A DNA stretch of 64,000 bases from IMG/VR virus record IMGVR_UViG_3300031555_005516, one strand, 5' to 3'. Made by a program: the position numbers and the translations under genes. Positions 8,580 through 64,000 of the stretch are shown here, piece after piece; the first letter of the stretch is position 1; the number at the start of each line of letters is the position of its first letter. Below the pieces are notes generated by a model that did not search any database, had not been told where the DNA came from, and saw nothing but the letters and a program-made list of their open reading frames with translations. This stretch comes from a virus.

Positions 8580-8617
8580 AGGTGTGCAGAATAACTAAAA
8601 ACTGCACACCTTTTTTG
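8580..8617 (+). terminator. rho-independent terminator ending the early plus-strand block
   Basis: hairpin aggtgtgcag...ctgcacacct followed by tttttt. Confidence 0.75.
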
Positions 8618-8619
8618 TG

Positions 8620-9210
8620 CAAATCGCCGGCACGCCTACCTCCGGTAGGCTGCCGATTCCAGCACTAGACCACCATTCCATACTTCTATATGCGATTGTT
8701 TAAATAGTTGATTGATTTTCATTTTCCCTAAATACACCTCATAGCAGATGTACATTGAGCTCGGGCCGCGGGCGACCGCGAAAGCCCGTCTAGAGCCTGG
8801 ACCAGCGCTTCTATACTTATACGCTCGATTTTGCTGTTTGTTTCATTTTAGCGAAAATCCTGTAAATTTTATTTCAAAACATATGAATTCTTAATCAAAA
8901 AGTGATATTTCTAATGTTTTTTATTTATTTTAGCTCTTTTAATAACAGCAAATTTTAAACTCAGAGCCAGTTTTTAAGAGATGCGCGCTCAATAGCGAAG
9001 AATAATTGGATTTTTATAGTAATTTATGTTATAATTATTATAGAAAGAGAATAAAAGGGGGGCAAAAGGTGAAGATATTAAGGGAAGCCGTGACTTGGGG
9101 GTAGTATAGGTGCGCACTTCCAAAAATTGGTAAAAACGTAAAAATTGGAAAGGCGCACTTTCCTCTAAATATGAAACAGTTAGAAAAATTAGGGGAAAAG
9201 TGCGCTAAAG
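8620..9210. other. gene-free convergent intergenic region with GC hairpins and direct repeats (candidate ori / packaging or other cis element)
   Basis: no ORF in any frame even allowing TAG read-through; hairpin gcctacc-tccg-ggtaggc; repeated cttctata..cgattg units; recurring attccagc motif. Confidence 0.3.
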
Positions 9211-9214
9211 TTAT

Positions 9215-9907
9215 TCAATTGATATTCTTTTTTATTCTCCACTCTGCAACTTTTACAGGGATAGTTCCATAGATCTCTTTAAAACGCTTTTGCGCTTTCT
9301 TATAAGAGTTCTTTTCTTTGGTAATATCTTCGCCATTCTCTTGACGATAGAAAGCATTTGCCGCTTCTTCTTCAGAAATTTTTTCCTCTTTAAGAATTTG
9401 TTTCCAATGTATCAGCACATCTTCTGGTAATGGAGTATAATCAATAAACCAAACCCACTAATATTTATCATTATGCTCTCCATATTCATTCATAGCGGGA
9501 CCCACATAGCGCTCAACTACAGCTGGGACACTGGTGTGTCCAAACTCTTCATAGCCAAACTCAGATATTGCTTCTCGCGCCACTCTTGATTTACTATTAG
9601 GAGCATACTCTGTTCCTAACGATGCAATAGCAAAAGTAGTATAGCTTTTCTTCTTTCGCTCTGTTAATTCACGTGAGTTAACTTTGCGCGGCAGTGGCTT
9701 GTATTCACCAATGACTTGTTTTATATAGATTCTAATTGGGCGCCCTTCATAGATTTCATAATCATAAAACTCTTTAAGCCATTCGAATAAATCTTCTTTA
9801 CGATTGCGAAATTGATACGTAGTGATTCCTGTCAATTCAAAAAACTCGCCTTTAAAGTCATAAATTTTTCCTGCTTCAATCATTTGATATTCATCTCCTT
9901 TCATCAA
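9215..9907 (-). CDS. hypothetical protein with one in-frame TAG (track ORFs 9458..9907 and 9215..9418 are one gene)
   Basis: the two minus-strand ORFs are in the same frame, separated only by TAG (…EHNDKY-TAG-WVWFIDYTPLPEDVLIHWKQ…). Confidence 0.5.
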
Positions 9908-60693: not shown

Positions 60694-60885
60694 ATGAATG
60701 ATTGTTCCGAGCAACATCGTAATAAAGTAAAAGAAGGAGTAAAGTGCTGCCTTCGAGAAATACGTAATTGTAACTCTTGTCCATATTTTGGCGACTGTGA
60801 TCAACTACGAGAGGATATTTTAAGAATGATTATCAGAGAAGAAATAGATGCAACAGACTGGTCAGGTTTTCAGGAGGGGTTCTAA
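60694..60885 (+). CDS. small Cys-rich protein
   Basis: 63 aa. Confidence 0.35.
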   Translation: MNDCSEQHRNKVKEGVKCCLREIRNCNSCPYFGDCDQLREDILRMIIREEIDATDWSGFQEGF

Positions 60886-61463
60886 TGGATCAAAAGAACA
60901 CAATAGTGAAATGTAAGGCGTATCCTAATTGCCTATTTAATCACAATGGGGTATGTGATAACTATGTGATTAACATTGGCGAAGACGGGAAGTGCGACTG
61001 TTATGTTGAGACTGAGCCTATTAGAGGGCAAAAAACCTGTCAAGATGATTGTATTCATTTTGATGATAGTGATCCCATGGTAGGTCCAATATGTTTATTC
61101 AATCATCCTGAACCTCTTAAAGAATTTTATAAAGATATGCCTTGTGACTATTATCATTCAACAAATTATACAAGAGGTCAACGAGCAAACTGTAATATTT
61201 ACGATGATGCTTGTGATGCTTCATTTTTAAAAGAAGATTTAGAAAAAATACAGCAGACATTAGAACAAGACTTTATCCCCTGCACAATGAAAGTAGCTGA
61301 GCTTAACAAGCCTAATAAGAATAAAACTGTTATAAGTGATTATGAACCTTTTCTTACAAAAGCAATTTGTAGTCAATGTAAATATGATACTCACGGACAT
61401 CTTTGTAGTCGTAAAAATGTTGCATCTAATGGTATTTGGACTTGCTGGGAGAAAAAAGAATGA
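60885..61463 (+). CDS. Cys-rich hypothetical protein
   Basis: 192 aa with >20 Cys. Confidence 0.4.
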   Translation: MDQKNTIVKCKAYPNCLFNHNGVCDNYVINIGEDGKCDCYVETEPIRGQKTCQDDCIHFDDSDPMVGPICLFNHPEPLKEFYKDMPCDYYHSTNYTRGQRANCNIYDDACDASFLKEDLEKIQQTLEQDFIPCTMKVAELNKPNKNKTVISDYEPFLTKAICSQCKYDTHGHLCSRKNVASNGIWTCWEKKE

Positions 61464-62575
61464 GGTATGACAGTGATGCAATTAAACAACAACTCACCTT
61501 CCAACAAGTATTCGATTATGTTGCCGAATTGGGGGGCAATCCAAAACTTGATCCATCTGGAGCTGAAGTAATAGTATCTCAAACTATTTGTCATAATCCA
61601 GCCTGCACAGGATCGCACAAGCTATACTATTATCATAACAGTCGCTTGTGGAAGTGTTATACAGAATGCGCAGGAGATGCATTTGACATATATGACTTAA
61701 CGCGGCGCGCAATGAAGATTCAGCGCGGCGAAGAGTGGCCACTATCACGCGCTGTGGGGTATGTTGCCCGCTATTTCGGTATAGCTTCTTCTGAAGACGA
61801 AAATTTTGGAGACTCACAACAAAAACTTCATGATTGGGATATTTTAAAGAATTATCAACAAAATAGTTCCATCAGTAATGATAAAAAAATAATTGAGTTC
61901 AAAGAATTTGATGAAAATATCCTTCAACACTTGCCACGCCCGCGCATTATCCCGTGGCTTAATGAAGGAATAACTCAAGAGATAATGGATTCTCGCGGTA
62001 TCTGTTACGACCCCGTAAATCAAGGCATTGTGATACCTCATTACGATGAAAATGGGGCGCTAATAGGTATCCGTGAGCGCACTCTTATCAAAGAAGAAGA
62101 AGCATACGGAAAGTATCGACCTGCGATTCTTAATGGTATTCAATATAATCATCCACTAGGCTTCGCTTTATATAACTTAAACAATAGCAAAGAGCATATT
62201 AAACAGATGGGTATTGCCATCGTGTTTGAGGGTGAAAAAAGCTGTTTAAAATACGCATCAATGTTTGGCGCCGACAACGACATCTCTGTTGCAACTTGTG
62301 GCAGTAACTTAATTCAGCATCAGGTTGACCTTTTGCGCCAATATGGAGCAAGAGAGATAGTGATTGCTTTTGATAAACAGTTTCAGAAACCTAATGATGC
62401 AGAGTTTAAGCAGTGGACGAAGAAACTAACGGCGCTGCATAATAAATATAGTAAATTAGTAAATATCTCTTTTATCTTTGATAAAAAGGGAGATATGTTA
62501 GGATATAAAGATGCGCCCGTTGACCGTGATGGAGAAACATTTATAAAATTATTTAAAGAAAGGGTGAGATTATGA
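61460..62575 (+). CDS. dnaG: DnaG-like DNA primase (zinc-binding domain + TOPRIM)
   Basis: start ATG 61460 (ATGA overlap); CHNPACTGSHKLYYYHNSRLWKCYTECAGDAFDIYDLT zinc ribbon; TOPRIM-like AIVFEGEKSCLKYASMFG...IAFDKQ. Confidence 0.65.
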   Translation: MRYDSDAIKQQLTFQQVFDYVAELGGNPKLDPSGAEVIVSQTICHNPACTGSHKLYYYHNSRLWKCYTECAGDAFDIYDLTRRAMKIQRGEEWPLSRAVGYVARYFGIASSEDENFGDSQQKLHDWDILKNYQQNSSISNDKKIIEFKEFDENILQHLPRPRIIPWLNEGITQEIMDSRGICYDPVNQGIVIPHYDENGALIGIRERTLIKEEEAYGKYRPAILNGIQYNHPLGFALYNLNNSKEHIKQMGIAIVFEGEKSCLKYASMFGADNDISVATCGSNLIQHQVDLLRQYGAREIVIAFDKQFQKPNDAEFKQWTKKLTALHNKYSKLVNISFIFDKKGDMLGYKDAPVDRDGETFIKLFKERVRL

Positions 62576-62898
62576 AAGGAATTATTTATTGTATTAATCG
62601 TTATGAGGGTATGCGTCTTCTTAAAGAAATTGTAGGAGACGCAGCTCTTGAAGGGCATAGACATACATGTTTTGTAACTAACCAAGATAAAACTTTTGTA
62701 GAATTTGAAAATGGTGATATATGGTATTTATTTAGCTCCTATAATGCAGCGAGAGGATATAGATGGGATTATTGCTTTATAGATAAAAAAATACCGCAAG
62801 AAATTATAGAAGAAAAAATTCTGCCTCATGCTATGGTGTATCATTGGGATTCGCCTGAAGCAAAAATACCAATAGATAGGAGGGTGCATTACTTTTGA
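62572..62898 (+). CDS. hypothetical protein
   Basis: 108 aa. Confidence 0.4.
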   Translation: MKGIIYCINRYEGMRLLKEIVGDAALEGHRHTCFVTNQDKTFVEFENGDIWYLFSSYNAARGYRWDYCFIDKKIPQEIIEEKILPHAMVYHWDSPEAKIPIDRRVHYF

Positions 62899-64000
62899 AT
62901 TATAAACTTTTAGGAAAAATAAATCCGCATTATTCAGCAGTAGAGTAGGTGCTTACCAATAGAGGTATTCCCTACTATGATATCCATCACTGGCTGAATA
63001 CAACAGATGCGGATATAAATGACTTTAATCTATTGGGCACCGATCGATTGCGCAAGGCAGCTCAAACCTTAATAAAAACGATTTCTCAAGGCGCCCGGGC
63101 GCTAGTTATCGTAGACTCAGACTGCGATGGTTTTACCTCGTCTGCGCTTTTAATCAATTACCTGTATGATCACTTCCCAGCTTGGGTTCAAAATAACTTA
63201 GACTGGTTTATTCATAGCGGTAAACAACACGGACTTAGCGATGTCGATGTTGAATGGGCGGCCGCCAATTACGCATTAATCTTGTGTCCAGACGCGAGTT
63301 CTAATGACTATGAGTATCATCTAGCCTTTATTGATAAAGGTGTAGATATCATTGTATTAGATCACCACGAAGCAGATATTGTTTCCCCTAATGCAATAGT
63401 CATAAACAATCAGCTTTGCGCCTATCCAAATAAGCAACTATCGGGCGTTGGCATCACATGGCAGTTTTGTAGATACCTTGACTCACTTATGCACACTAAT
63501 TACGCGCAGAATTATCTTGATCTCGTTGCATTAGGAAATACCGCGGATATGATGTCGCTTCAATCAATAGAAACAAAGCACCTTATAATGAAAGGTTTTC
63601 GCGAGGAAAATATCCACAACCCATTTATCGTAACAATAGCTGAAAGTAATGCCTATTCTCTTGGAGATAAGATTACACCACATGGCGCCGCTTGGTATAT
63701 TGCGCCGTTTGTTAATGCTATGGTGCGTAGTGGTGAAGAAGATGAAAAAGAGCTTCTTTTCAAATCCTTCTTGAAATTTAAGGCTTTTGACTATATATAT
63801 TCAACAAAGCGCGGACATAAACAGGGTGAAACTGAACAATTAGTAACACAAGCAGTACGCACTTGTAAAAATGTAAAGACGCGCCAAACAAAGGCTCAAG
63901 ACGACGCAATGGCGCGACTTGAGAGCAGAATTGAAGAAGAAAATATGATGGCGCATAAAGTATTATTGTTTCTCTTGGAACCAGGTGAGGTAGAGCCGAA
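62895..64000 (+). CDS. recJ: RecJ-like DHH-family ssDNA exonuclease (partial, runs off window end), one in-frame TAG near N-terminus
   Basis: TTG start 62895 (TTGA overlap) 11 nt after RBS aggagg; ...HYSAVE-TAG-VLTNRGIPYYD...; motifs LVIVDSDCDGFTSSALL, DASSND, VLDHHE (DHH); absent from ORF track because of the TAG. Confidence 0.6.

Follow-up and report, generated by a model that had tools for sequence, protein, structure and literature searches.

Amber codons within intact genes of a phage, and a stand-alone suppressor tRNA by which UAG is probably read as glutamine

Does the codon TAG terminate genes in the phage represented by the IMG/VR virus record IMGVR_UViG_3300031555_005516, or is it translated, and if so as which amino acid? 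The question was raised by a stretch of 64,000 nucleotides from this record (hereafter the window), in which long reading frames with recognizable domains are interrupted by TAG, and in which a tRNA gene with a CTA anticodon was found. The evidence presented below indicates with good confidence that UAG is decoded as an amino acid in this phage, most likely glutamine, while the expression and charging of the tRNA as well as the identity of the residue are what we infer from sequence. The closest relatives of the window are IMG/VR contigs of 123-135 kb that share 75-90% nucleotide identity with it, from which the genome of the source phage would be roughly 135 kb. About 100 further contigs of the same phage family, more distant and mostly of 120-190 kb, were also retrieved. 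Loci on related contigs are referred to by L numbers.

Open reading frames (ORFs) were listed with TAG read through, and a crude gene map was then built from codon usage. A total of 30 in-frame TAG codons were found in 15 otherwise intact genes, a count that takes in the ambiguous small gene at 19715..19900. An earlier note on this DNA had named at least 13 such genes, and all of its per-gene counts (seven, five, five, two, then singles) were reproduced, while the ends of two genes were revised: the gene at 52389 ends at 53582 and not at 53585, and the gene at 9215 more likely starts at ATG 9883 than at 9907. The TAG-bearing genes are the following.

40993..41850, plus strand: GIY-YIG/NUMOD homing endonuclease gene with seven TAGs (codons 18, 42, 120, 138, 145, 151, and 265), identified by Pfam GIY-YIG and NUMOD1; the L062-L064 orthologues keep or exchange the TAGs.
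10789..11178, minus strand: GIY-YIG homing endonuclease gene (Pfam) with five TAGs, over all of which the L060/L061 homologue aligns.
52389..53582, plus strand: gene of a coiled-coil protein with a C-terminal GIY-YIG domain (Pfam) and five TAGs (codons 38, 45, 92, 149, and 192).
42620..43240, plus strand: conserved membrane protein gene with two TAGs (codons 100 and 169).
56378..57193, plus strand: LAGLIDADG homing endonuclease gene (Pfam LAGLIDADG_3) with one TAG (codon 35), at the position of which the L044 homologue has Lys.
56122..56214, plus strand: exon 1 of a Sak4-like (AAA_24) gene with one TAG at 56158..56160; the gene is unbroken in L001 and has TAG at the same codon there.
From near 57351 to 58289, plus strand: exon 2 of the Sak4-like gene, with a Pfam AAA_24 match at 57390..58289 that begins at profile position 27.
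62895..64000, plus strand, running off the window end: RecJ-like DHH phosphoesterase gene (Pfam DHH) with one TAG (codon 18).
9215..9883, minus strand: conserved hypothetical protein gene with one TAG (codon 142) and coding scores of 0.24 and 0.33 per codon on either side of it.
28528..29184, plus strand: gene of a tail-fibre-like protein (weak Mtd_N match) with one TAG (codon 18), a codon that is TAG in L017 and L018 and TAT in L016.
51847..52116, plus strand: small conserved protein gene with one TAG (codon 25), which is TAG, CAG, or GCT/GCA in relatives.
39607..39909, plus strand: small conserved protein gene with one TAG (codon 12); the L016 orthologue starts with the same MI(D/E).Y and has Gln at residue 12, provided that no gap precedes it.
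13173..13634, minus strand: gene of a small protein with a hydrophobic N-terminal segment and one TAG (codon 30); the L060/L061 homologue (33% identical) has an in-frame stop at the matching position.
12063..12251, minus strand: small gene with one TAG, placed by the gene map; the L023 homologue has Lys at the site.
11843..12043, minus strand: small gene with one TAG; basis, the gene map alone.
19715..19900, plus strand: small basic protein gene, the TAG of which (19871..19873) is either a sense codon or a real terminator; eight low-scoring codons lie between this TAG and a TAA, and an in-frame stop is conserved there in L060/L061.

Within these frames, no TAA, TGA, or frameshift was observed. 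As TAG makes up 17% of off-frame stops, the chance of every interruption being TAG would be about 1e-24 if the interruptions were random. Coding potential was in frame 0 both 5' and 3' of the TAGs, and five Pfam domain matches extend across TAGs (three of GIY-YIG, one of LAGLIDADG_3, and one of DHH). The terminators of confident genes pointed the same way as the earlier claim that TAG never ends such a gene: TAA was used 63 times, TGA 20 times, and TAG not once. The good-scoring standard-code ORFs that end in TAG were pieces of read-through genes, except for 19715..19873 and the frameshifted 36233..37468, and the standard ORF track indeed fragments the TAG-bearing genes as had been described. 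The base following the codon was T in 5 of the 30 in-frame TAGs versus 34 of the 83 TAA and TGA terminators (Fisher P = 0.024), which is suggestive of an avoidance of strong termination contexts by the in-frame TAGs.

Two further ORFs were considered as TAG-bearing genes and rejected. In the ORF 36233..37627, coding potential quits the frame at the first TAG, and the four TAGs past 37466 are there because of a frameshift and not because of recoding. The RNA-ligase-like gene at this locus (36233..37638, with a match to the OB-fold PF21189) has a frame of 36233..37468 that ends at TAG, while its conserved C-terminus (REGVVVRI...FKHK) carries on in the ORF 37423..37638; the cause could be an indel made in assembly, decay to a pseudogene, or programmed frameshifting. 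The second ORF, 11464..11922, has its TAG upstream of ATG 11850, which is preceded by a ribosome-binding site.

Orthologues in relatives with 75-90% nucleotide identity were found to preserve the TAG positions. For example, among the counterparts of the 52389 gene at L001-L006, five relatives likewise have TAG at codons 38, 45, and 92, codon 149 is replaced by AAA or AAG and codon 192 by CAA or AAA, and codon 199, which is CAG in the window, is TAG in relatives. Similarly, codon 18 of the RecJ-like gene reads TAG in the window as well as in L001 and L002, and L006 and L013 have CAG instead; the 17 codons preceding it are conserved, with synonymous changes. The membrane protein had 120 full-length homologues that span codons 100 and 169. 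Its codon 169 is TAG in the window and in L131, CAG in L128, and CAA in L130, and the genes of L128 and L130 can be translated with the standard code. For the 9215 protein, a large protein database provided 94 homologues, mostly full-length, that align over the TAG, with a conserved W-V-W just after it, and a peptide-pattern search of IMG/VR found no relatives of this protein. Where relatives carry an in-frame stop opposite a sense codon of the window, the stop was TAG in 14 of 14 cases and never TAA or TGA. Additionally, stored gene calls of close relatives (near-identical ENA contigs) already render TAG as Q.

The earlier note had claimed recoding, which is confirmed here, while the suppressor tRNA that would be its mechanism had gone unseen. 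It lies between the RNase H and gyrase B (gyrB) genes with the following elements.

41875..41903, plus strand: promoter-like site (TTGATT, 17 nt, TATAAT) scoring 10/12 in a consensus scan, with a putative promoter function.
41933..42008, plus strand: amber suppressor tRNA with anticodon CTA, tRNA-Gln-like and with an encoded CCA, identified by ARAGORN and scoring 53.2 bits on the Rfam tRNA model.
42015..42042, plus strand: intrinsic-terminator-like hairpin followed by a T run, located by a scan directly 3' of the tRNA.

The promoter-like site lies 30 nt upstream of the tRNA, and both of its hexamers are kept in relatives. No fewer than eight related contigs have the suppressor at this same site, flanked by RNase H and gyrB (L016, L062, L063/64, L015, L052, L128, and L131). 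TAG is considered to be used as a sense codon in the window phage, a reading that is supported because its positions are conserved, the homologues are full-length, no confident gene ends in TAG, the interruptions are by TAG only, and a tRNA with a CTA anticodon is present.

In the window and in L062-L064, the GIY-YIG gene with seven TAGs is inserted directly upstream of the tRNA, after the RNase H gene. The idea that this endonuclease gene and the tRNA form one mobile cassette was rejected: the gene is absent from the site in L015, L016, L052, L128, and L131, and because these five relatives have the tRNA alone, the GIY-YIG gene does not carry it. The suppressor at this conserved site diverges much faster than its flanks, and the L063 copy has an odd T-loop (loci compared: window 41933..42008, L016 20653..20728, L063 ~2930..3005, L015 19661..19759, L052 20489..20585, and L133 12185..12272). 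The variable region is enlarged by some 20 inserted nt, which represent a long extra arm or else an intron, in the suppressors of L015 and L052, as well as in suppressor B of phage phAss-1 (OQ749652; proposed genus Phassvirus, 'Caudoviricetes code 15 clade' at NCBI; Babkin et al. 2023, PMC10607447).

Which amino acid is inserted was approached through the tRNA and through the codons found opposite TAG. In a whole-sequence ranking against 666 phage tRNAs, the suppressor had about 0.7 identity to many isotypes, and the acceptor end and D-arm were informative instead. The window suppressor has U1 opposite C72, G73, G2-C71, G10, and the D-arm GCCAAGCGGGAAGGC, and its acceptor end and D-arm resemble those of the phage tRNA-Gln(TTG) of relatives and of the phAss-1 suppressor, which was assigned to Gln by Babkin et al. 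(PMC10607447). The acceptor stem of phAss-1 suppressor A (TGGGGAG/CTCCCCC, then G) recurs unchanged in the suppressors of L062 and L063. A tRNA-Gln gene was not found in the window by ARAGORN, while relatives have tRNA-Gln(TTG).

The tally of codons aligned with TAG was restricted to ORFs whose frame scores best of six, with the partner profiles that ordinary codons show in these alignments serving as calibration. An unfiltered all-versus-all tally was rejected for its contamination by antisense and out-of-frame alignments, which yielded 1,579 TAA partners; 13 were left by the filter. Across 73 TAG positions of the window clade, the partner profile was closest to that of CAG/CAA, by 32 nats over the Lys codons and 46 nats over the Glu codons. 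In pairs with at least 90% amino-acid identity, the partners were Q in eight cases (CAA/CAG) and K in two (AAA). A deduplicated tally of contigs with the window-type suppressor gave Q 14, K 9, and E 7.6, with Gln the best by about 10 nats. Exchanges between TAG and CAG or CAA were observed at RecJ codon 18, codons 192 and 199 of the 52389 gene, codon 25 of the 51847 gene, and membrane-protein codon 169. In the 120 membrane-protein homologues, column 169 contained Q 60 times and K 40 times, and column 100 contained Q 28, M 24, L 21, and H 21 times, while E occurred in neither. With the clade partner profile, the codon exchanges, and the tRNA-Gln-type features all in favor, the earlier suggestion that TAG most likely stands for Gln is supported, and Gln is the best reading of UAG in the window phage, one that we consider probable.

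Several observations weigh against this reading. The partners of the window's own TAGs are mixed (Q and K, then E, R, N, Y, and others), and K occurs there as often as Q; therefore, the case for Gln depends on the tally for the whole clade and on the tRNA. A check of whether TAG positions align with Gln columns, which had been proposed along with the recoding claim, thus came out favorably for the clade profile and the CAG/CAA exchanges and indecisively for the window's own sites. It failed for the motif KKTG-TAG-KYFG, where Gln had been said to fit: distant GIY-YIG homologues have K or R in this column. In the tRNA, the window suppressor has C3-G70 where tRNA-Gln has G3-C70 (as do the suppressors of L016, L062, L128, and L131), and it has a U1/C72 mismatch versus U1-A72 of tRNA-Gln. 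The suppressor also differs strongly among close relatives, with 75% identity between the window and L016. Among the window proteins scanned, which do not include every gene product, no release factor 2 (RF2) or aminoacyl-tRNA synthetase was recognized. The small ORF 19715..19873 may truly terminate at its TAG. Finally, suppression may be partial instead of a full reassignment, because the overall TAG density is low, at 1.9 per 1,000 codons, and read-through adds only about 3.5 kb of coding sequence.

The alternative that survives best is that TAG stands for Glu or Lys. For instance, a non-discriminating glutamyl-tRNA synthetase (GluRS) may charge the suppressor with Glu, and the amidotransferase GatCAB may fail to amidate it because of the U/C mismatch at 1:72. 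The frequent K and E partners at the window's own TAG sites would be expected under this alternative, and a sister clade of the family combines a clear Glu signal with Glu-type suppressors. However, the profile and exchange counts given above for the window clade favor Gln codons over those of Lys and Glu, the membrane-protein columns contain no E, and the suppressor has G73 and U1 as does phage tRNA-Gln, while G1-C72, A73, and an additional base in the D-loop characterize the phage tRNA-Glu genes found in the window and in L018. A meaning of Glu or Lys in the window phage is thus considered unlikely.

The sister clade itself demonstrated a different pattern. Its giant ORFs of 2,000-3,100 codons contain 46-69 TAGs each, or about 1% of codons (L025, L026, L028, L029, L034-L037, L041, and L045). 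At 50-70% identity, the partners of sister-clade TAGs were E in 54 of 99 cases and Q in 7 of 99, and the codon-profile test, which was not deduplicated here, grouped TAG with GAA/GAG, 193 nats ahead of the Gln codons. After deduplication, 151 positions on contigs with the sister-type suppressor gave E 53, D 14.5, Q 13, and K 13, with Glu the best by 34 nats. The CTA suppressor of this clade sits within the tRNA array, often right after tRNA-Glu genes, and has a paired 1:72 position and a tRNA-Glu-type D-arm, which in L116 is identical to the D-arm of the phage tRNA-Glu(TTC). No CTA suppressor was found at six sister-clade loci around a major-vault-protein-like gene; it was present in the tRNA arrays instead (array loci L091-L093, L097, L098, L101-L105, L107, L111, L114-L116, L120, L121, and L123). 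Given this Glu signal, TAG would not have one fixed meaning throughout the family. The comparison leans slightly toward two reassignments of the amber codon within the family, to Gln in the lineage of the window and to Glu in the sister lineage, and the literature searched yielded no description of phages or bacteria in which TAG is translated as Glu.

The distribution of TAG among the window genes was uneven. The six homing endonuclease genes contain 18 TAGs in 1,546 codons, compared with 11 in 13,934 codons elsewhere, which corresponds to 11.6 versus 0.79 per 1,000 codons, or about 15-fold (Fisher P = 1e-11). In these endonuclease genes TAG even outnumbers CAG (18 versus 7), and the large replication genes have no TAG in 3,707 codons. 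The early block (1-8.6 kb) is likewise free of TAG over its 1,696 codons, as the earlier note had observed, but the contrast drawn from it is not significant because only 1.3 TAGs would be expected at the non-endonuclease rate. A similar preference was described by Borges et al. (10.1101/2021.08.26.457843), where a homing endonuclease gene of a group I intron is preferentially recoded (TGA, in Agate phages) and a delayed expression was proposed. The concentration in the window would fit a delayed or damped expression of selfish nucleases. Alternatively, it fits an incomplete suppression, in which costly TAGs would be lost from essential genes but persist where a gene is dispensable.

The same concentration lends something to the explanation that the TAG-bearing frames are decaying pseudogenes or separate short genes with TAG as an ordinary stop, as homing endonuclease genes, which are known to decay, hold 18 of the 30 TAGs. 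Several lone TAGs are also near N-termini, where a later start is imaginable, and the gene calls stored for Joint Genome Institute contigs (L068-L070) begin the RecJ-like gene directly past its TAG. However, the L001 RecJ gene has ATG at codon 1, and its TAG is followed by GTA, which is not a start codon. More generally, TAG is the sole interruption of these frames, its positions are shared with relatives at 33-90% identity, and genes other than endonuclease genes, with deep sets of full-length homologues, bear it as well. Together with the lack of TAG terminators and the presence of a dedicated suppressor tRNA, these results largely refute decay or later starts, which we regard as very improbable. 

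That the CTA tRNA is a tRNA-Pyl and TAG encodes pyrrolysine is hardly credible: the ARAGORN label to this effect is given to any CTA anticodon, the D-loop of the suppressor is canonical and contains GG, its T-loop (TTCGAAT) is canonical too, and the tRNA as a whole reaches 53 bits on the general model, whereas tRNA-Pyl lacks canonical D- and T-loop features (its D-loop is short and has no GG, and its variable loop has 3 nt), no pylS or pylBCD-like gene was recognized among the window proteins scanned, and the TAG columns align with Q, K, and E and not with one catalytic Lys-like site.

Under the preferred reading of UAG as Gln, the suppressor tRNA would be expressed from a separate transcription unit that lies between the genes for RNase H and gyrase. 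It would be charged by a host enzyme that accepts a tRNA-Gln-like acceptor and D-arm, either by glutaminyl-tRNA synthetase or by GluRS followed by GatCAB, and the charged suppressor would compete with host release factor 1 (RF1) at UAG. Because phage genes end in TAA or TGA, suppression would come without cost to the phage, and host genes alone would suffer read-through. The TAG-bearing genes, which in the window are for the most part endonuclease and accessory genes, would yield a full-length product only after the suppressor is present, and a timing or regulatory role of TAG may be envisaged on this basis.

Recoding of this kind is known. Amber-recoded phages of genetic code 15, in which TAG is read as Gln with the aid of suppressor tRNAs, include crAss-like phages, Lak phages, and other gut clades (10.1101/2021.08.26.457843; PMC9523058), and the amber-to-Gln change was confirmed by proteomics by Peters et al. 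(PMC9523058). The window shares with them in-frame TAGs in conserved genes, an avoidance of TAG ends, a phage tRNA(CUA), and the deduced meaning of Gln, along with a host presumed to use the standard code, and the designation of code-15-like in the earlier note is therefore apt. It differs in belonging to another lineage and in its low TAG density, mainly in free-standing or intron-borne endonuclease genes. Recoded codons of code 15 phages are typically enriched in late, structural, or lysis genes, with early genes that suit the standard code; such a concentration is not seen in the window, outside which most structural and lysis genes lie, and the 'code change module' of RF2 and aminoacyl-tRNA synthetase genes was not seen among the scanned window proteins.

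The amber-to-Gln recoding, which is already described, is here found in a lineage remotely related to phAss-1. A family-specific protein encoded at 55140..56105 matched phAss-1 as the sole GenBank phage record, with 29.6% amino-acid identity, and the one 8.2-kb stretch queried against the GenBank phage collection (window 43369..51559) had no megablast match. Membership of Phassvirus would call for nucleotide similarity and synteny with phAss-1, BK046881, and BK025033, and the window phage falls outside this genus because of the 29.6% identity in one protein and the absence of a megablast match for the stretch tried. The likeness to phAss-1 extends to a genome size near 135 kb (that of the closest relatives of the window), a large array of tRNA genes, the reading of TAG as Gln, and the possession of tRNA-Sup-CTA genes. 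In phAss-1, the suppressors adjoin tRNA-Leu upstream of the ribonucleotide reductase gene, while that of the window stands alone between RNase H and gyrB.

Bacterial suppressors offer a second comparison. The supE-type suppressor (E. coli glnV44) is a tRNA-Gln whose anticodon is CUA and which, in competition with RF1, places Gln at UAG. The window suppressor similarly has a tRNA-Gln-like body with CUA, but it is a dedicated phage gene and not a mutant host allele, it is mismatched at 1:72, and it is coupled to a genome-wide avoidance of TAG terminators.

Two genes of the window are interrupted by insertions that carry endonuclease genes. The N-terminal part of gyrB (43369..44898) ends within the Toprim domain and the C-terminal part lies at 45978..46373, with a TAG-free GIY-YIG endonuclease gene (45111..45818) between them; the gyrB of L128 is unbroken, at 632 amino acids. 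The interruption is probably an intron with an endonuclease gene. Similarly, the Sak4-like AAA_24 gene (56122..58289) is split within the P-loop region, where about 1.1 kb of DNA bearing the LAGLIDADG gene is inserted. This insertion is absent from L001 and L006, while at L002 another one, of about 1 kb, lies farther into the gene. A search of the window with Rfam at gathering thresholds found tRNAs only, with no match to a group I intron model in either interrupted gene.

The window, with a G+C content of 37.7%, encodes besides the split gyrase B a gyrase A, an NAD-dependent ligase, a DnaB-like helicase, a sigma-70-family factor, and the Sak4-like ATPase. The host is probably a member of the Firmicutes, although this is a lead only. 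At 30771..33263, an 830-amino-acid protein with a major-vault-protein shoulder domain (PF11978, 3.5e-25) is conserved family-wide; in the GenBank phage collection, only three uncultured huge phages (462-735 kb) match it, at 40% identity. In the early block, the gene at 448..780 follows that at 131..421, the protein of which is identical on L065-L067. There, the positional counterpart of 448..780 matches the PemK toxin family (PF02452), and 448..780 would accordingly be a toxin-like gene.

ARAGORN identified 22 tRNA genes in the window, and some members of its array are unusual. One has a four-base anticodon call (ggat) and scores 45.5 bits in Rfam (21038..21112), and three are unusually long: Ile(tat) with 90 nt (21851..21940), Lys(ttt) with 87 nt (25941..26027), and Thr(tgt) with 85 nt (27293..27377). 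Relatives also encode TCA (opal) tRNAs, several of them with a long variable arm, and one has a TTA (ochre) tRNA, while L082-L084 hold both a TCA tRNA and a third type of CTA tRNA (opal and ochre loci: L015 3640..3715, L079 17246..17340, L082-L084, L118, L126, L125, and L114 15725..15799).

When genes of the window are called with the standard code, at least 15 of them are broken or truncated and three GIY-YIG endonucleases stay hidden; for annotation, translation table 15 is advised. The reading of TAG is a real but well-described habit of some gut and rumen phages, to which the window adds one more independent amber-recoded lineage, with a minimal mechanism in view: a single stand-alone suppressor tRNA, with no release-factor or synthetase gene among the scanned window proteins. 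If the sister clade reads TAG as Glu, the family would allow a direct study of how the identity of a suppressor sets the new meaning of a codon. The window would then represent the Gln arm of a natural comparison, in which one stop codon was captured by different tRNAs.

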